From Pirellulales bacterium (lineage in GTDB: Bacteria > Planctomycetota > Planctomycetia > Pirellulales > PALSA-1355): 64,000 nt of DNA. Below, one piece after another: positions 15,512 to 58,604 of this stretch (position 1 is its first letter; the number at the start of each line of letters is the position of its first letter). The DNA lies in NCBI GenBank assembly GCA_963733035.1, contig CAVTBU010000006.1, positions 352,001 to 416,000 of the forward strand, read 5' to 3'. The position numbers and the translations under genes are program-made. Below the pieces are notes generated by a model. The model ran no database searches, was not told the origin of the DNA, and saw nothing but the letters and a program-made list of their open reading frames with translations.

Positions 15512-15871
15512 CCGCCGGTCCTGCGGTTTTCAGCCGAGACTCTTACCACTGGCGGCATGACGGTCCTGCCCAGCCGCCTTGGTCTCCGCGCTTCGTGACG
15601 GCTGGTCCATTGGCGCATGGCGAGGTGCACGGGCCTACTCTCAACGCAGCCGGCAAGCTTTTCCTATCCTCTTGGCGATACGCTATCTGCGGCCCGAGAA
15701 AGCGGCGTTTCTGGTCAATTCGCTTCGTTCGGCGGGTCGATAGCAGCTTTGCGGAGCCGAAGTGGAGACTAGGCGGCCATTCCCCCCCTCGCGCTGCCCG
15801 CTGAGAAATCGAAGCCCACCTGAGTGTTCCCAAAAACACTCGCACCCGTTTCAATGGATTGGAGAACGGAC

Positions 15872-17350
15872 ATGAAACTCTCGAAGTTGGCACTGGCCAG
15901 CGCCATCGCTGGCCTGCTGTCGGCCGGGACCGCCTACGCCCAGAGCGGAGTGGGGCAACCCTCTTCCGTGCAGCAGACAGCGTTTGAGTACAACAGCTAC
16001 TACGCTCAAGACTACGATGAGCGTGCTGGCGCCAAGGAACGCGGCATTGAAGGCGAAACCGACCCGATGGCTCTCCCGAGTCAACCGGATGTTTCCACCC
16101 CGGAAGCAGAAGAGAGCTTCGGCAACGGTGCCGGAACGCTCTTGAATCCGTGTTGCTGCCTCGGCGACGAATGGCGCATCTTTCAAAACGAATGCCTCGA
16201 CTGTCGCGGCATTACCGTGAACGGCTGGCTCGCGTGGAATCCATACACCTGGAACACCTCGAACCCGGCTGATCGCTTCAACGGCCCGGTCACCTGGACT
16301 GACCGTGCAAACGTCCCGACCGTGAACCAGCTCTATCTGTTCGCCGAAAAGGCGACGGACGGTACTGGTGGCTGGGACTTTGGTTGGCGCATCGACGGTA
16401 TGTACGGCACCGACGCCCGTTTCACGACGGCCTCGGGTTTGGAAACCCGCAGCTACTTCTCCTCGCCGAAGTGGAGCACGCAGCGGTTTTACGGTCCGGC
16501 GTTGCCGCAGTTCTACGTGGAAGGTGCCTACAATGACTTGAAAGTCAAAGTAGGACACTACTACGCACCGGTCGGATACGAAGTTGTGCCGACCACCGGC
16601 AACTTCTTCCCCAACCTACCTTATACCTTCCAATACGGCGAACCGTTTACGTTCACCGGCGTGCAGGCCACTTGGCAGTACTCCGAGAACGTGGCGATCG
16701 GCGGTGGTGCGATGCAAGGTTGGGACAACTTCGACAACTCCAATCCCAACACGGGTTTCAATATTACCTACGTCGAGAACTTCCAAGACGGTGCTTCGCT
16801 GGCCATTACTTCGGTGGCGAGCAATGAATTGACGCAAGCGGGAACCTACCGCAACCGCTATTTGCAAACGAACGTCTATAGCCGGCCGCTCACGCGGATC
16901 AGCGATCGTCTGAATTACGTCGCCCAGAGCGACTTTGGTTACCAGAACGACGCTTTGCTCAACGGTCATGACGCATACTGGTACGGCTTGAACCAATACC
17001 TGTTCTACAAGGTCAGCGACTGCATGACCTACGGTATCCGCGCCGAATGGTTCCGCGACCAGAACGGCTACCGTGTCGGCGGGTTCTTGGGACCAACGAC
17101 GGGCGCCCCGGGGGCTCCCCAGCGTGGTCTCTCGACCAGCCGCTACGGCTATGCCGGCAGCTTCTACGAGGTCACCATCGGTGCCAACTGGAAGTACAGT
17201 GCCAACACCACGGTTCGCCCCTATGTGCGATTCGACTGGTTCAGTGGCAGCACCGATCCGGCGGTCAACCCGACGAACCTGCGGCCCTTCGACGGTGGAT
17301 TTGGCAACAGCCAGACCCTCATCGGCGGCGACATCGTGACGATCTTCTAA
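15872..17350 (+). CDS. Outer-membrane beta-barrel protein (putative BBP2/OmpL-like porin)
   Basis: Signal peptide ending AYA, NQLYLF, YGTDARFT, GHYYAPVGYE, RAEWFRD, C-terminal F; GGAG RBS. Confidence 0.8.
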   Translation: MKLSKLALASAIAGLLSAGTAYAQSGVGQPSSVQQTAFEYNSYYAQDYDERAGAKERGIEGETDPMALPSQPDVSTPEAEESFGNGAGTLLNPCCCLGDEWRIFQNECLDCRGITVNGWLAWNPYTWNTSNPADRFNGPVTWTDRANVPTVNQLYLFAEKATDGTGGWDFGWRIDGMYGTDARFTTASGLETRSYFSSPKWSTQRFYGPALPQFYVEGAYNDLKVKVGHYYAPVGYEVVPTTGNFFPNLPYTFQYGEPFTFTGVQATWQYSENVAIGGGAMQGWDNFDNSNPNTGFNITYVENFQDGASLAITSVASNELTQAGTYRNRYLQTNVYSRPLTRISDRLNYVAQSDFGYQNDALLNGHDAYWYGLNQYLFYKVSDCMTYGIRAEWFRDQNGYRVGGFLGPTTGAPGAPQRGLSTSRYGYAGSFYEVTIGANWKYSANTTVRPYVRFDWFSGSTDPAVNPTNLRPFDGGFGNSQTLIGGDIVTIF

Positions 17351-17472: not shown

Positions 17473-17862
17473 TTAGTAGTTGCCATTGATTTTCGAGCCG
17501 GCCGAACGGAACCCGTAGGAGCCGATGATTTGCCGGTTGCGCACTGAATTGGGGAAGCCGCCGACGATTGGCGTGCCGAACATTCTGGCTGTGGCCGAAT
17601 TGCCTTCCGCTACGTTGCCATCCGTGTACGAGAAGCTGCGAGTGACACCAGGTTGGTAGTCAATCCACGCATTGCCGTTCCAGACCTTCCAGTTCTTTTG
17701 CTGTGGCATCCAGTACCACCACTGGCCATTGTAGTAGCGATAGTTTGGATCCTTTGCCGCCTGGGTCGTCTTGTTGTCCTTCGATTCATCGGCCCGGGTG
17801 GTGCTCAGGCACACAATCGAAGTCACAGCCACGAGGGCCAACAATACAAAGAGCTTACGCAT
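17473..17862 (-). CDS. Small secreted aromatic-rich hypothetical protein
   Basis: Signal peptide MRKLFVLLALVAV; AGGAG RBS; YRYYNGQWWYW..WKVWNGNAW. Confidence 0.8.
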   Translation of the reverse strand: MRKLFVLLALVAVTSIVCLSTTRADESKDNKTTQAAKDPNYRYYNGQWWYWMPQQKNWKVWNGNAWIDYQPGVTRSFSYTDGNVAEGNSATARMFGTPIVGGFPNSVRNRQIIGSYGFRSAGSKINGNY

Positions 17863-18494
17863 GGTCCCGTTCTCCTGGTTCAAAAGAGATGTCCGCCTTG
17901 GCGCCGATCTCAGCCGACGCTCAAACTTATAGAACCGATAGTGCCGGGAGCGACTTCAAGTTCCGGCCGTTTGCATTGCGATCGCCCGGCCGCCCCCGGA
18001 CATTCATCTACAATTGTAGGCCACCAGGACCGACAAGAAGACCGCTTGTGTCCCTTTTTTGGAAGCATGATTGTTCGAGATTTGGGCATTTTTTGGCCAC
18101 CGGTCTTGGATTTCCAGGTCGCGTCCGCACCCGCGAGCATCGTGACCTCGGTCCCTAAGGCACCCAGATGTTCCCGATAAAATGCCCAATGGCAGATGCA
18201 CGGTGTCAGTGCCCGAGTATCAAGCAAATCCCTACAAATCGGCTGAGTGTGCGACCGGCTGGCTAGCGGTCATGACTGCAAGTTAGGCAGATTCCGCGAT
18301 GCGCATCGGGTGCTACGATGCTTTGCCCAAAGGCAATGCGGTGTATGTCGCGCAGTTGGGCAGAGACGGGGACGCACGCGAGCAGCTAGACCGAATCAAC
18401 CGAGATGTTCCGCGATTCGGTTGTCAACGCAAGTCTTTTGCAATCAGAGAGATGGAGTGTTCGACGGCCTTTTTTCAGAGTGACTTGCAACTCC

Positions 18495-18510
18495 TGGCAC
18501 GGTGATTGCA
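18495..18510 (+). promoter_or_regulatory. Sigma-54 (-24/-12) promoter upstream of the P-II gene
   Basis: TGGCACGGTGATTGCA matches TGGCACG-N4-TTGCW exactly. Confidence 0.85.
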
Positions 18511-18612
18511 ATTCTCCCCTGCCGCACTTGCAACCGCGAGCGTCAACGGGACCTGTGAGCCGGTTTTGCAGCGGTCGCGAGCATTGACAAGACATCGGCG
18601 AAAACTTCGGCT

Positions 18613-18688
18613 CTTGCCTGGGCCAGAAGGATGCCCCTTTGGCTTGGGTAGGTATCCGCCTAACCTGCCCAAGCCAGGGGCCTTTTTT
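18613..18688 (+). terminator. Intrinsic terminator with an overlapping antiterminator arm, in the P-II leader
   Basis: Stem 18633-18653/18663-18681 followed by T6; segment 18613-18625 can pair with 18640-18652 instead. Confidence 0.75.
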
Positions 18689-18861
18689 ATTGGTGCCCCC
18701 GAGTTAATGTGCACTTCGCGTTTTCCTCTCGCGTATCGCCGCACCGCCTCCGCCCCGTCGCTCGTTGCTCCAACCACGTCGTGTCGTTAGAACTAAGCTA
18801 CTAGGAACGCGCAGCCGGGCAGGCGCGCGGGTGGGCCGGTTAGCCTCGGAGAATCAGTTAC

Positions 18862-19209
18862 ATGAGATTGATCATCGCCATCATTCAGCCCACGCGGCTG
18901 GAAGCGGTGAAAGCGGCACTTTCCGAGGTCGAGGTTTTTCGCTTGACCGTAATGGACGTGCAGGGCTTCGGGCGTCAAAAGGGACATACCGAGGTTTACC
19001 GCGGTCATGAGGTGACAGTAAACCTGTTGCGCAAGGTGCAACTGCAGATTGCGGTCAACGAGGAGTTCGTTGAACCGACGATTGGGGCCATCATCAAGGG
19101 AGGACGCACCGGCAAGAGCGGCGAAATTGGCGACGGCAAAATCTTTGTCCTGCCGCTCGACGATTGCATCCGTATTCGCACGGGTGAACGAGGCGGCGAA
19201 GCAATCTAA
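18862..19209 (+). CDS. glnB: Nitrogen regulatory protein P-II (GlnB/GlnK family)
   Basis: GFGRQKGHTEVYRG T-loop, IGDGKIFV, IRIRTGE; GGAG RBS. glnB vs glnK cannot be distinguished; no amtB adjacent. Confidence 0.93.
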   Translation: MRLIIAIIQPTRLEAVKAALSEVEVFRLTVMDVQGFGRQKGHTEVYRGHEVTVNLLRKVQLQIAVNEEFVEPTIGAIIKGGRTGKSGEIGDGKIFVLPLDDCIRIRTGERGGEAI

Positions 19210-19268
19210 AACCCCTCAGGCAGCTTCCGCCAACCGACTGCATTCCGCGAACGTGCCGGTGCGTATTG

Positions 19269-20400
19269 CTAGTGTGACGCTGGTCTGACCGCCGGTCCGC
19301 GGCGACTTGGCATCCATTTGCATAAGCCTACTCCGGCAAAATAAAGCCCCACCAGCGGCACCAGCATCATCATCATGCTATATGGGTCGCCGCCGGGGGA
19401 GAGGACCATCGCCATGATCGCCATGATGAGCACGGCAATTCGCCATTTTGACAGGTATGCCTGCACGCTGAAAACGTGGATTCGCTCCAGAAACAGCATA
19501 ACCAGCGGCAACTGAAAGCTGACACCAAAGCCCAAAGGTAATAGCAGCACGAAGCTCAGCCATTCGCTGAGCCGCGGCCGCATTTCGGTGCCCAGGGATT
19601 CAGCGATGCCGAAGAAGAAATTCAACACCGGCGGAAAAACGGCGAAGAACGCCAAGGCGGCACCCGACAGGAATAGCGCTAGTGAAAACGGCAGGAACAG
19701 GTGGATGTACCGCTTCTCATGTGGGTAGAGTCCGGCTGCCACAAACTGCCAGATGAAATAGAATACCGCGGGGCTTGAAATCACCGCCCCGGCAAGAAAG
19801 CCGGCCTTGATGTAAATGACGAACGGTTCTTGCACGCCGAGTGCGTCGAGTTTCATCCGTTCATCGTCAGCCAATGGCCGCCAGATAAACAGGCGAATCA
19901 TCGCATCCTTGGAAAACTCGCGAACTGCCGGCGATGGTTCGGCTTTATTCCGGGAATCCAGCTCGCTGTTGGGCGATGATTTGCCGCCGGCTGCTTGTGG
20001 CTCCTGCGGCGTTAGATCAATGTCGTCGAACTTGCCGGGATAACGGCTGCGCAAGGCTGCCAGCATATCTCCGGGGGCGACGTACCGCTCTTCAGGCATC
20101 AGCCCATCGGTGTAGATTAGTTGCCCGATGGCTTCTTTTATCGATTCCTCCTCTGCCAGGTCTGGAGGGAGTTGTGTTTCCAACTGTTTGACTGCTCGCT
20201 CTTGATAGAATTTCTCGAGCGCCTTCTTGAGCGGTCGCTCGATGCCACGCACGATCGGCGAAGCAAACAGCAGCCCAATCGCAAACCCGATGACGAGGGC
20301 GATAACGGCCTTGAACAGCGCCGCGCAACTCTTCCAGGTGTTCCCCGAATGTCATCGAGGTATGCTGAAATAGATCGTCTTCGTCGCGTGAATCGACCAT
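19269..20400 (-). CDS. tatC: Twin-arginine translocase TatC, frameshifted near 20320
   Basis: MTFGEHLEELR in one frame; LFKAVIAL..., EPF, WQFVAAGLYPHEK, FGVSFQLP and P.GDPYSM in another. Confidence 0.92.
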
Positions 20401-40917: not shown

Positions 40918-41129
40918 CCCTCCGTTGGCGTCTCTACCCGCACGATCGGCATAAATTCGCTCGGTGCATGCATAGGGACTGCACATCGACTGTGCGCCAG
41001 GTAGGCACTGTATTCGCGAGAGCGAGTCAGAGAGTTCTACTTGGACCGTAAACGACTTTTTCTAAGTTGATTGTGGGTAACAGACTATGTGCGGTGCCGC
41101 GCCGTAGCGCAAGGCGTTTTTCCAAATCC

Positions 41130-41145
41130 TGGCATGCACCTTGCT
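41130..41145 (+). promoter_or_regulatory. Sigma-54 (-24/-12) promoter
   Basis: TGGCATGCACCTTGCT matches TGGCAY-N5-TTGCW; palindrome TGCAC-N7-GTGCG at 40980-40996. Confidence 0.75.
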
Positions 41146-41194
41146 AAACACGTGAATCACACTCGCAAGGGACGCGAGTCGAACGAAGTGGTGA

Positions 41195-41599
41195 ATGGAA
41201 GACCCAAACGTGAAGCGAGCCCGCCGCCCGCGGCCGCCGCAAAAGTGGCAGCAACTGCGCCGGTTGCCGCTTTGGCAGCGGCTGCGGCGGCAACCTCGCG
41301 ATAACGCAACGAAATTCAAAGCGTGGAGCTGGAACGTCACGTTAAACGTGAGATGGGATTCGTGGAAGCTAACCATTTCGCACAATTGCGTGACGCTCTG
41401 GATGGATGATGGTTGGTTGGCTACTCCTGGTTCGCCTCGGTTCGGCTGCCTTACCGCAGTCGAACCGAGGTACCAGGGAGTGCCGGCTCATGGCGAATCG
41501 CTGATGCCAGCGCACGCCGCCCGCGCAAGTTCAATCCTGCCACACCTGCGCAGGATCTCTGGTTTCCGCCTAACCAGAGAGACGCCCCACGCGACTTGA
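41195..41599 (+). other. Unresolved sigma-54-driven unit: either a 134-aa Arg/Trp-rich ORF or a non-coding RNA
   Basis: Longest ATG ORF downstream of the promoter; no recognisable motif. Confidence 0.3.
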
Positions 41600-41653
41600 G
41601 CGGGTTGATTCGTCGGCCCGCTCAGGTCGGGGTGGCGCGTCGATTCTTCCTAG

Positions 41654-43039
41654 CTACTCTTCGCCCAGGTAACGGATTCGTTTATTGATGTCGGTATTGA
41701 CCGAATGATAGGGCCGGAACAGGTTTCCCGAGTCAAATAGCGTTTCGCGAATGTGCTCGATATCGTCCGGGCCGATGGCGTCCGTGAAGATCGGCAGCAA
41801 GTACTCGATCCCCAGCGCCGACGGCCGCATGTGCTCGGGATCGTAAAACGAAGGATGCACACTGCGGGCATGGATATGTCCCCAGCGGTCGCGAAAGGCG
41901 TTGCCACCGATGCTATCGACGTAGAAGCCTCGCTCGTCGTTGTACTGCAGAATCGCCACCGCATCGTTTTGCCCCTCGAAGAGCATGTCCACGGCTTTGC
42001 CGCCAAGTTGTGCGGCATAAAAACGATCGAATGCCAACGGCCGTCCGCCACGTTGCGTATGACCGATCTTACGCGTGAAAACGACTTCGCTCGCCTCCTG
42101 ACCGCGACGCGAGTTGCGGAAGTAGTCGTCGCCAAGCGCTTCGATCAACTGCTCGCGCAGGCTCTCGGAGGCTCCGGTAAGTACCAGGTTCCCCGCGGGA
42201 TCCGTGCTGCGTCGTGCCGCACCCAGCGGCGCGCCTGTAGCGTCGACGATGCCTTCGCCACATACGATTACCACGTTCTTCTGTACGTCGTAGATTTCTT
42301 TCACTCGCTGGACGACCAGTTCCAAATTGATTGGTGCTTCCGGAATCAGCACCAGGTCGGGTTGGCCGTAGCTGGAACCCAGGGCAATAAACCCCGAGTG
42401 CCGACCCATCACTTCCACGATCGCGATGCGGCGGTGGCTTTCGGCCGTCGTGCGAACGCGCTCGAGGCCGCCGGCCGAGACGTACACGCTCGTGGCATAG
42501 CCCGGCGTGACATAGTTGATCATCTGCCCCGGATCCATGCTTATGGTCGAAGACTTCCGAATGTAGCGGTGCCCCGGCGATTCGCTGCACGGCACCCGAT
42601 CACATTCGTCGACTTCGCTCGCATAGTTCAGCCCCAAGTCATTGTCGATTGTTTTGGGGCAGAGCACCGTGGGAAGACGCTCGCAAAGCGGCTGCAAGCC
42701 ATTGAGCGTGCCGTCCCCGCCGATGCACAGCAGCCCTTCGATGCCGAGTCGGTTGAGATACCCGAAGATCAGCTGGAGCGTCTCTTTGTCGTTTGGATCG
42801 ACATAATCGCGCGAACCACCGAGGATCGTTCCGCCCTTCGTCGGGTCGAGTTCCGGAATCGCACTGAACAGCGGGTTCAGGTGCACGTGAGGTACACGGG
42901 GATTAAATAGACTGTTAAAGCCCTTGATCAGCCCCAAGACTTCGATCTTGAGTTGATTGGCCCGCACTACCGCTCCGTAGATGCTGGCGTTCAGAGCCGG
43001 TGTATCGCCGCCGGCGGTCAATATGGCAATACGCTTCAT
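41654..43039 (-). CDS. pfkA: 6-phosphofructokinase (PfkA family)
   Basis: TAGGDTPALN, GGTILG, IGGDGT, PKTIDND, EVMGR, GHTQRGG. Confidence 0.92.
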   Translation of the reverse strand: MKRIAILTAGGDTPALNASIYGAVVRANQLKIEVLGLIKGFNSLFNPRVPHVHLNPLFSAIPELDPTKGGTILGGSRDYVDPNDKETLQLIFGYLNRLGIEGLLCIGGDGTLNGLQPLCERLPTVLCPKTIDNDLGLNYASEVDECDRVPCSESPGHRYIRKSSTISMDPGQMINYVTPGYATSVYVSAGGLERVRTTAESHRRIAIVEVMGRHSGFIALGSSYGQPDLVLIPEAPINLELVVQRVKEIYDVQKNVVIVCGEGIVDATGAPLGAARRSTDPAGNLVLTGASESLREQLIEALGDDYFRNSRRGQEASEVVFTRKIGHTQRGGRPLAFDRFYAAQLGGKAVDMLFEGQNDAVAILQYNDERGFYVDSIGGNAFRDRWGHIHARSVHPSFYDPEHMRPSALGIEYLLPIFTDAIGPDDIEHIRETLFDSGNLFRPYHSVNTDINKRIRYLGEE

Positions 43040-43267
43040 GGAAGAAACTCAGGGGGAATCGTCGACCGCGGCGACCGATCTGCTTTCGGCGCGCAGCATC
43101 TCAAAGAAAGGTGACTGTGTGCAAGTGTAGTGCCACGGGCACGCCAGCCAGCATCGAGATGGGAGTCTTGCACTTGCATGCCGCGTCGGTCCCGCATGCG
43201 GGCAGTCCGCCGCAATCGACTGGGCTGGCGCCGGCCGCGTATCTGTAATTTCCTGTCGGACAATGTG

Positions 43268-56766: not shown

Positions 56767-58604
56767 ATGGGCTATCGCACGCTACGCGCCTGTTTGACGG
56801 ACTTGGAAGCCACGGGCCAGCTCGTGCGCATCGAGCACGAAATCGACCCGCACTTGGAAGCGGCGGAAATCCACCGGCGCGTGTTCCAAGCGCGCGGGCC
56901 GGCCTTGTACTTTGGAAAGGTCAAGGGGTGCTCGTTTCCCATGGTGAGTAACCTGTTCGGCACGATGGAGCGAGTGCGCTTCCTTTTTCGCGATACGCTC
57001 GCCGGCGTTCGCCGCCTGGTGGAATTGAAAGCCGATCCGAGCGTGGCGGTTCGCCGCCCGTGGAGTCAACTCACCCTGGCGCCCACGTTGTGGCACATGC
57101 TTCCTAAAAGCGTCCGCTCCGGTCCGGCGATTGCTCACGAAACAAGCATCTCGAAACTCCCGCAACTGCAATGCTGGCCCGATGACGGCGGGGCCTTCAT
57201 CACCTTGCCACAGGTTCTTACGGAAGATCCCGTGCGCCCGGACTGCAACATTCGAACCTGGGAATGTACCGCGTGCAGATTTCAGGCGGACAGTACGAGC
57301 CGAACCACGAGGTAGGTTTACATTACCAAATTCATCGTGGCATCGGCGTGCATCACGCTGCCGCATTGGCCCGGGGAGAGGATTTGCGCGTGAACATCTT
57401 CGTTGGTGGGGCGCCTGCGATGAGTGTTGCCGCCGTGATGCCGCTTCCCGAAGGGATGTCGGAGTTGGCGTTCGCAGGAGCGCTGAGCGGACAGCGGATT
57501 CCGATGATCGTGCGGCACGTTGGTCCGCCAGTCTATGCTGAAGCAGACTTTTGCATTTCCGGCGTGATCGAACGAAATCGCAAACTCCCGGAAGGACCGT
57601 TCGGCGACCATTTGGGCTACTACAGCTTGGCACACGACTATCCCGTACTTCGAGTCGAAAAGGTCTGGCATCGCCCGGATGCCGTCTGGCCGTTTACCGT
57701 GGTTGGCCGCCCGCCCCAGGAAGATACGATGTTCGGCGAGTTGATTCACGAGATCACCGGCCCGGCAATTCCCAGCACGATTCCCGGTGTGCATGCCGTG
57801 CACGCCGTTGATGCCGCGGGTGTGCATCCGCTGTTGTTGGTGATCGGAAGCGAACGGTACATGCCGTTCGCGGAGCGCCGTCGTCCCCAGGAACTTCTCA
57901 CGATGGCCAACGCGATTCTCGGCCAGGGGCAGCTCTCGTTGGCAAAATACCTTTGGATCGCGGCACGCGAGGACGAACCGGCGCTCGACATTCACGACAT
58001 CCCCGGCTTCCTGGCCCACATGCTCCGTCGCGTCGACTGGTCGCGCGACTTGCATTTTCAAACCTGCACCACGATCGACACGCTTGACTATTCGGGCGAC
58101 GCGATCAACGAAGGTTCGAAATTGGTAATCGCGGCGGTCGGTCCGGTCGTGCGCGATTTGCCGGGTACGATTGACGGAGCCACGCTTCCGGCCGGCTTTG
58201 GTCCCGCGCGAGTCTGTCTGCCGGGAATCGTCGCGATCGCCGGGCCACGGTTCGAAGCGAGCGACGGCCGCTGTGACGCAAGGCTTGAATCCTTTTCCGC
58301 GGCCATCGACTTGGACAACCCGCTGCGGCGATTTCCCTTGTGGATCATCGTCGATGATGCGGAATTTACGTCTCGTACTTTGGACAATTTCCTTTGGACC
58401 ACTTTTACACGAAGCAACCCTGCGACCGACGTTCACGGCGTGGATGCTTTTGTCCGCCACAAGCACTGGGGCTGCCGCGGACCCCTGGTCATTGATGCCC
58501 GAGCCAAGCCGCATCATGCGCCACCATTGGTGGAAGATCCGGTGGTAGTACGGCGAGTTGACGCACTGGCGGCTCGCGGCGGTCCGCTAAATGGCATCCT
58601 GTGA
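56767..58604 (+). CDS. UbiD-family (de)carboxylase, frameshifted near 57238
   Basis: DP.LE, SNLFGT, WPDDGG.FITLP; then NLGMYR.Q, EGPFGDHLGYY, GRPPQED. Confidence 0.9.

Follow-up and report, generated by a model that had tools for sequence, protein, structure and literature searches.

A gene of the P-II (GlnB/GlnK) family, encoding a protein of 115 aa (18862-19209; Pfam PF00543, E 4e-27), is located in a 64,000-nt stretch of DNA from a Pirellulales bacterium (assembly GCA_963733035.1, contig CAVTBU010000006.1, positions 352,001-416,000, forward strand), which was analysed as a whole and is called the window hereafter; coordinates are those of the window and refer to its plus strand unless stated otherwise. 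Upstream of this gene, on the same strand, are found a sigma-54 (-24/-12) promoter, a variable 5' hairpin, a second hairpin (P1), a short purine linker and a terminator hairpin (P2), and the terminator ends 174 nt before P-II. The predicted primary transcript of ~168 nt would extend from 18521 to 18688, its start being derived from the promoter geometry and its end from the terminator. All the features listed by the first-pass annotation of this locus were found when the sequence was read, which confirms its observation, and its interpretation is partly supported. A BBP2-type porin gene is present upstream of the RNA/P-II unit (15824-17350), as is also the case in a locus of another family (L094, 2-1147), and may belong to the same nitrogen-related neighbourhood.

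The Sigma-54 Promoter and Its Upstream Block

The promoter TGGCACGGTGATTGCA (18495-18510) matches TGGCAC-N5-TTGCW exactly, as the claim of a consensus -24/-12 element had implied. The exact consensus occurs twice in the window, and with one mismatch allowed there are 6 matches versus 2.3 expected. In 50 of 64 loci the motif GGCA[CT]-N5-[CT]TGC was found within 380 nt upstream of the module (the conserved 3' part of the RNA, described below) and in its orientation, compared with 0/64 loci on the opposite strand and 0/64 downstream. The distance from promoter to module ranges from 78 to 379 nt across loci, and the 5' part of the RNA is thus free to vary.

An activator-site-like block, TTGCCCAA followed after ~25 nt by TTGGGCA (18323-18362), lies ~135-175 nt before the -24 element, and most loci of the window's family, as read from their sequences, have a TGCnCAA...TTGGGCA block about equally far from the sigma-54 motif. 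Judging from its sequence, this block would be bound by an enhancer-binding protein. One rpoN gene and 19 matches to Sigma54_activat are present in the genome itself, whose enhancer-binding proteins number at least a dozen. The half-sites TGCCCAA/TTGGGCA of the block (18323-18362) resemble TTGGGTA/TGCCCAA in the P2 stem (18643-18673). Co-variation of the half-sites with the P2 stem was considered and rejected, because changes in the half-sites (TGCTCAA, TGCATAA, and others) are not mirrored in the stem; the 7-mer likeness is probably a coincidence.

The second exact sigma-54 consensus of the window, TGGCACTACACTTGCA (43120-43135, minus strand), is located 80 nt before an ORF of 461 aa (41654-43039, minus strand), which converges on the ~500-nt non-coding region described below. 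Downstream of P-II, TTGGCATCCATTTGCAT (19306-19322) looks sigma-54-like by eye, with the GG-GC spacing one base short, and is located within the 3' end of the convergent tatC gene, which is on the opposite strand.

A Conserved Module at the 3' End of the RNA

When a 461-nt query was compared with 60 relatives by BLAST, strong conservation was confined to ~85 nt (18604-18691), the stretch that we call the module. It is 88-100% identical between genera of the family, a value that falls to 74-89% in other families of the order; conservation is lower on either side of it and also where the P-II coding sequence begins. In most cases the match precedes the same P-II gene, whose start is conserved, by 100-300 nt. 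The module is among the best-conserved non-coding sequences of its order. Of 151 genomes of the order, 124 contain it according to a covariance model (R1) built from 47 sequences (MAFFT alignment A1), one family having 0 carriers among 9 genomes; none of 150 genomes taken from elsewhere in the phylum was matched. These searches scored 27 candidates per genome under strict filters and could miss weak homologues. A DNA-pattern scan of species-representative genomes returned almost only records of Pirellulales, Planctomycetaceae, and Lacipirellulaceae, among them one from a cultured carrier, Adhaeretor mobilis HG15A2 (L118). Pattern matches in other phyla (L173, L183, L184, L186, and L187) were discarded, as they fail the covariance model and fit the few chance matches expected.

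The hairpin P2 (18633-18681) consists of a GCCCC/GGGGC base plus 13 bp and is followed by a T6 tract (18683-18688). The first-pass annotation had called 18633-18688 a strong terminator, and this description stands: a G+C-rich stem of 17 pairs followed by U6 has the make-up of an intrinsic (Rho-independent) terminator, is part of the minimum-energy fold, and is conserved in orthologous loci, as is the promoter of the RNA unit. A simple terminator scanner missed P2 only because its loop exceeds the 8-nt limit of that program. A run of four or more T follows the stem in 52 of 65 homologues. On alignment A1, 98.4% of the P2 cells are paired and 10 of 13 pairs have changed on both sides; the whole structure contains 12 compensatory pairs versus 4.6 in shuffled alignments, a value reached by none of 500 shuffles. 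On a model-fitted alignment of the 65 hits (A3), which leans towards R1, 12 of 13 P2 pairs are compensatory with 98.7% of the cells paired, and 6 of 9 P1 pairs show compensatory changes. Since G-U exceeds A-C among the paired cells (161 versus 27), we read the structure as RNA on the plus strand.

The apical loop of P2 carries the motif CCGCCU (18656-18661), whose columns are invariant in alignment A1; the motif is present in the P2 loop (9-10 nt, NNCCGCCUN) of all 65 model hits, and is retained in array units whose stems differ. An invariant loop on covarying stems is the pattern that would be expected of a recognition loop. Membership in a generic family of terminators was rejected, as the genome of the window shows no excess of hairpins with CCGCCT loops (22, versus 2-35 for permuted hexamers).

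P1 (18605-18629), formed by CUUC-GGCUC and GGGCC-A-GAAG, belongs to the minimum-energy fold, and its loop is UUGCCU in 44 of 65 sequences. The purine linker CAGAAGGAU (18624-18632), which contains the GGA motif pointed out earlier, is conserved: the form AGAAGGAUGCCCC is identical in 43 of 65 sequences, and GGA is lost in five (e.g., AGAAGAUG and AGAAGACG). The GGGC/GCCC hairpin that was thought to display this GGA (CAGAAGGAT, 18620-18636) can indeed be drawn, but it competes with the better-supported P1 and terminator base, and we rejected it because divergent sequences do not retain GGGC, and the partner of GCCCC is GGGGC at the foot of the terminator stem.

The long hairpin described in the upstream part of the RNA is real in the fold (18527-18591, -25.5 kcal/mol), and its sequence is conserved no further than the genus. 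In several genera an inverted repeat of ~100 nt (GGGGTGTCAYGRGTTGCC ... GGCAACYCGTGRCACCCC) is inserted in this variable 5' part, between the sigma-54 motif and the module (L014, L016, L022, L024-L027, L029, L037, and L049), and five inverted-repeat loci gave no Rfam match at the gathering threshold.

The fold of a 174-nt RNA from the locus reaches -75.9 kcal/mol (z -3.1), and none of 200 shuffled sequences was as good. The statement that no known riboswitch is recognisable agrees with an Rfam 15 scan of 17800-19600 at E up to 10, in which there were three sub-threshold terminator-like matches, the best with 20.2 bits against a threshold of 45; five related loci likewise gave 0 matches at the gathering threshold. 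A conserved ORF in the RNA is excluded by indels of 1-4 nt between GCCCC and P2.

The Proposed Antiterminator

The headline of the first-pass annotation was a terminator/antiterminator switch controlling P-II, in which arm B (18640-18652) would pair either with the upstream arm A (CTTGCCTGGGCCA, 18613-18625) or with the downstream arm C (18664-18676) over 13 nt. Both pairings are computable: A:B has 13 pairs, five of them G-U, and -17.0 kcal/mol, compared with -24.4 kcal/mol for B:C. The best fold containing A:B reaches -32.7 kcal/mol versus -49.1 kcal/mol for P1 plus terminator, a gap of 16.4 kcal/mol. For the nascent RNA, as long as arm C has yet to be transcribed, the minimum-energy fold is A:B (-26.5 kcal/mol).

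The comparison of homologues did not bear out the switch. The covariation score of A:B is 0.142 versus 0.138 in shuffles and was reached by 160 of 500 shuffles, and compensatory changes in two loci (L020 and L023) preserve B:C and break A:B. Pairing of upstream sequence with arm B beats 95% of shuffles in 43 of 65 sequences, which are the near-identical ones; it is at chance in the other 22, mostly divergent, whose B:C helices still have -19 to -28 kcal/mol, so that the alternative pairing is lost on divergence. Covariation among orthologous loci, which had been suggested as a check, thus speaks for the terminator stem P2 (12/13 pairs) and not for arm A with arm B. Across the sequences compared there is neither the conserved, mutually exclusive helix of an attenuator or riboswitch nor a conserved upstream sensor joined to a variable platform. 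The pattern is the reverse, with conservation in the terminator hairpin and a 5' part that varies (78-379 nt). Arm A is contained in P1, and is better explained as the 3' half of that hairpin than as an antiterminator arm.

The P-II Promoter

Between terminator and ATG, a sigma-70-like motif consisting of TTGCTC, a 17-nt spacer, and TAGAAC is found at 18765-18793. The pattern TTGnnn-N17-TAnnn[TCA] is present in this spacer in 49 of 58 loci in the forward direction and in 5 of 58 in reverse, compared with a mean of 3.2 and a maximum of 10 in shuffles, and the motif takes two lineage-specific forms, TTGCYC/TAGAAC and TTGAGN/TACGAT. Judging from this conserved motif, P-II very probably has its own sigma-70-type promoter. 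The first-pass annotation had named a P-II promoter downstream of 18690 as an observation that would refute its leader model, and the probable promoter here speaks against that model. In 60 of 64 loci a P-II gene starts 96-669 nt beyond the module.

Other Genomic Contexts and Further Copies

The module is also found in other surroundings. In 7 of 64 loci amtB ends just upstream of it. Five loci have it immediately 3' of amtB and in the same orientation: in two of them (L084 and L091) the downstream gene is unrelated, and in three (L089, L090, and L092) no P-II family gene was found in the flanking ORFs scanned. Two to four tandem copies are present between amtB or a porin gene and P-II in L093, L094, L100, L101, and the Adhaeretor locus (L118). 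Larger arrays exist in L103, with at least 14 hairpin units (TRF period 97, 9.8 copies, 88% matches), and in L099, with at least nine; their units carry the CCGCCU loop on different stems, without the GGA linker and without a U-tract.

A variant type of module has CCGCC(U) in the loop of P1 instead of P2, and one such copy is present in the window. This second, divergent copy (41545-41643), with the P1 loop UCCGCCUA and a P2 closed by GCCCC/GGGGU, is matched by R1 with 26.6 bits (E 0.0011, filters off) and is conserved in relatives with compensatory changes. It ends a region of ~500 nt (41130-41643) with several nearly invariant hairpins, headed by a second sigma-54 motif (TGGCATGCACCTTGCT, 41130-41145) that is invariant in 6 of 6 aligned relatives; conservation of the region extends to 13 of 24 genomes of the family, and an Rfam scan of 41000-41800 gave only sub-threshold noise. 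An arginine-rich ORF of 134 aa (41195-41599) overlaps this region, whose conservation looks as if it acts on the nucleotide and structure level. A third, weak R1 match in the window (56836-56936, minus strand; 20.9 bits, E 0.018), which has CCGCCU in neither loop, may be due to chance.

On another contig of the same genome, outside the window (C7, ~549225-549370, plus strand), a strong terminator (GGGGCCTCTGATG...CATCAGAGGCCCC, then TTTTTATT) is located ~130 nt downstream of another sigma-54 motif (TGGCATTCCGCTTGCA). This unit, located ~3 kb upstream of amtB, which has its own sigma-54 motif at C7:552164, is on its sequence a candidate for a further sigma-54 sRNA.

Presence in RNA Libraries

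Contigs with the module, derived from relatives, were present in all four metatranscriptome runs compared. Within the intergenic region 18400-18861 they cover 18584-18691 alone, and in two of the runs contigs reach into the coding part of P-II (18967-19000); these public runs are assembled contigs that represent small shares of the window, and the uncovered parts of 18400-19000 are uninformative. Three of the four full-module contigs extend 35-114 nt past the terminator, which could be read-through or contaminating DNA. The fourth, a 151-nt contig from a relative, spans about the RNA unit and ends at the U-tract, a weak hint in support of the ~168-nt transcript. Assembled contigs of this kind document presence in RNA libraries and say nothing about transcript ends.

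Possible Function

We lean, by a modest degree, towards the reading that the locus is an independent gene for a ~170-nt regulatory RNA of a new sigma-54-dependent family, acting in trans through its CCGCCU loop. The first-pass annotation had offered a ~165-nt sigma-54-dependent sRNA as its alternative, and this fits the conserved promoter and terminator, the absence from Rfam, and the copies free of P-II. We infer that, presumably under nitrogen limitation, an enhancer-binding protein at the conserved upstream site would activate the sigma-54 promoter, and that transcription would stop at the strong intrinsic terminator, which is predicted from its stem sequence and covariation. The functional part would be the conserved 3' module (P1, the short purine linker, and P2 with its CCGCCU loop), and the partner that the loop would contact in trans may be an RNA-binding protein or a G-rich, AGGCGG-like site in an mRNA. 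Most transcription of P-II would start at the gene's own sigma-70-type promoter. In other lineages the module may be released from the 3' end of the amtB transcript, or have been multiplied into tandem arrays.

The RNA has its own promoter and terminator and lacks a conserved ORF, as a trans-acting sRNA should, and the occurrence of the module away from P-II counts for this reading. The tight synteny with P-II (60/64) counts against it, as it would equally suit a role in cis. Among sRNAs a recognition motif in the terminator loop is rarer than a 5' seed, and this less common position also counts against the sRNA. There is no match to Hfq in the genome of the window, which is 92% complete, and the usual chaperone logic is therefore inapplicable to this RNA. 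Two targets were considered and rejected. The P-II 5'UTR has no conserved AGGCGG in the terminator-to-ATG spacers examined. The amtB leader on C7 contains UAGGCG...GGCGGA behind its own sigma-54 motif, but it is barely conserved even among genomes of one family: for the sigma-54-driven leader 4 of 31 match, including that of the window, and only near the start codon.

Control of P-II in cis is the leading rival. Sigma-54 transcripts would reach P-II, and a factor or ligand recognising the CCGCCU loop or the linker would decide between termination and read-through. The layout suits this idea, since the module sits between the sigma-54 promoter and P-II in most loci with P-II downstream in 60 of 64, and the amtB-module-P-II arrangement places it inside a probable operon; A:B as the minimum-energy nascent fold before arm C (-26.5 kcal/mol) and the RNA-library contigs that cross the terminator point the same way. 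We nevertheless consider an attenuator unlikely, because A:B lacks covariation and is at chance in divergent sequences, the terminator fold is more stable by 16.4 kcal/mol (-49.1 versus -32.7), and the 5' region, where an aptamer would be expected, is not conserved, while P-II has its own conserved promoter motif, copies and arrays free of P-II exist, and no riboswitch family was matched. A role in cis could also be of a simpler kind, if the module were a shared terminator, stability, or docking element for whichever transcript carries it (the amtB mRNA, the 170-nt RNA, or the ~500-nt RNA) and not an effector. That it is found at the 3' end of three kinds of transcription unit, with the U-tract widely kept, agrees with such a service function. 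The 170-nt RNA, however, has nothing else conserved to protect, internal array units keep the loop without having U-tracts, and an ordinary terminator has no need of an invariant loop, which makes this explanation distinctly improbable in our view.

Most remote of all is the notion that the inverted repeat works as DNA, as a transcription-factor site or a REP-like repeat whose RNA fold is incidental. Tandem arrays do look like repeat elements, and the stem TTGGGTA/TGCCCAA does resemble the half-sites TGCCCAA/TTGGGCA of the upstream block. Compensatory changes keep the pairing and not the sequence, however, and the excess of G-U over A-C (161 versus 27) is a strand-specific signature of RNA; the upstream half-sites vary without matching changes in the stem, and the genome has a single strong copy with no enrichment of CCGCCT-loop hairpins (22 versus 2-35).

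Next to the trans-acting sRNA that we favour, we entertain, more tentatively and as something rather doubtful, a broader idea. The CCGCCU hairpin could be a reiterated docking site for an RNA-binding protein specific to this order, with its many CsrA paralogues and no detectable Hfq, or possibly for a nitrogen metabolite, so that the sigma-54 RNAs, the amtB 3' ends, and the arrays of 14 or more units would together form a nitrogen-controlled sponge or decoy. If true, such a system would add to nitrogen control in Planctomycetota a post-transcriptional layer that is new.

Comparison with Known Systems

In the literature on planctomycete sRNAs, sigma-54, and P-II that was covered, a scope that leaves aside bioRxiv supplements and subscription journals, the module is undescribed. 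No regulatory RNA is known to have been characterised in Planctomycetota; in a 2025 review of the phylum the words sRNA, small RNA, riboswitch, sigma, non-coding, and PII do not occur. The Rhodopirellula-1 motif, the only planctomycete motif in a 2010 survey of structured RNAs, was compared and set aside as it has a different sequence. Because the module is conserved, is physically tied to amtB and P-II, two central nitrogen-signalling genes, and has a clean sigma-54 promoter, it offers a direct entry to the nitrogen regulation and the RNA biology of an environmentally abundant and genetically little-studied group.

RNAs that sequester CsrA (CsrB/RsmZ type) carry several GGA motifs, mostly in loops, and the module recalls them by its GGA in a purine-rich linker beside hairpins and a terminator. 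A CsrA sponge was nevertheless rejected, as there is one GGA per RNA, which is lost in 5 of 65 homologues and is absent from the array units. The genome of the window has 14 CsrA-family matches above the cut-off, an unusually large complement. The dual-hairpin target of ANTAR proteins has two hairpins with hexaloops, A being at position 1 and G at position 4. The first-pass annotation was right that no canonical ANTAR twin loop is present, and such a target was rejected, since the P1 loop is UUGCCU, the P2 loop has 9-10 nt, and neither P1 nor P2 is an A1/G4 hexaloop.

Among RNAs linked to nitrogen genes, the glnA RNA (glutamine riboswitch) is associated with P-II, amt, and GS genes and is sometimes found in tandem, according to the excerpts of PMC2864571. 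Compared with the riboswitch as described there, the conserved part of the module is the terminator hairpin and not an upstream aptamer, and the Rfam scan gave no match to it even at E up to 10; by these features the RNA is not a glutamine riboswitch. GlnZ is an sRNA from the glnA 3'UTR, that is, a terminator-containing 3' RNA of a nitrogen-regulon mRNA (excerpts of PMC9731577). The module copies directly after amtB parallel it, the presumed biogenesis of those copies being deduced from their position, while the RNA in the window differs from GlnZ as excerpted in having its own promoter.

The closest parallels are two others. In the alphaproteobacterial cuckoo RNA family and CcsR, CCUCCUCCC is present in every hairpin loop (excerpts of PMC4615179; see also PMC8034643). 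As in the module, two to four or more adjacent hairpins share a C-rich loop motif on varying stems, and tandem copies are known, some co-transcribed behind a protein gene. The module differs from these RNAs, as the excerpts describe them, by its CCGCCU motif, its restriction to one planctomycete order, its sigma-54 promoter, and its position adjoining amtB or P-II; its loops carry CCGCCU or UUGCCU and not the CCUCCUCCC by which the excerpts define the family. NrsZ of Pseudomonas aeruginosa is induced through NtrB/C with RpoN (sigma-54), and its loop motif ACAGGCAG is functional according to a heading of the paper (PMC4253122). On that partial description it has in common with our RNA the stem-loop modules, a conserved loop motif that is functional, and a neighbourhood of nitrogen regulation. 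It differs from the module in that the two belong to different phyla and have no relationship in sequence or in Rfam, and in that here the loop is CCGCCU and the conserved hairpin is the terminator itself. By analogy with these systems, as far as the excerpts describe them, the module would resemble NrsZ most in function and cuckoo/CcsR most in architecture, and appears to be a member of neither.
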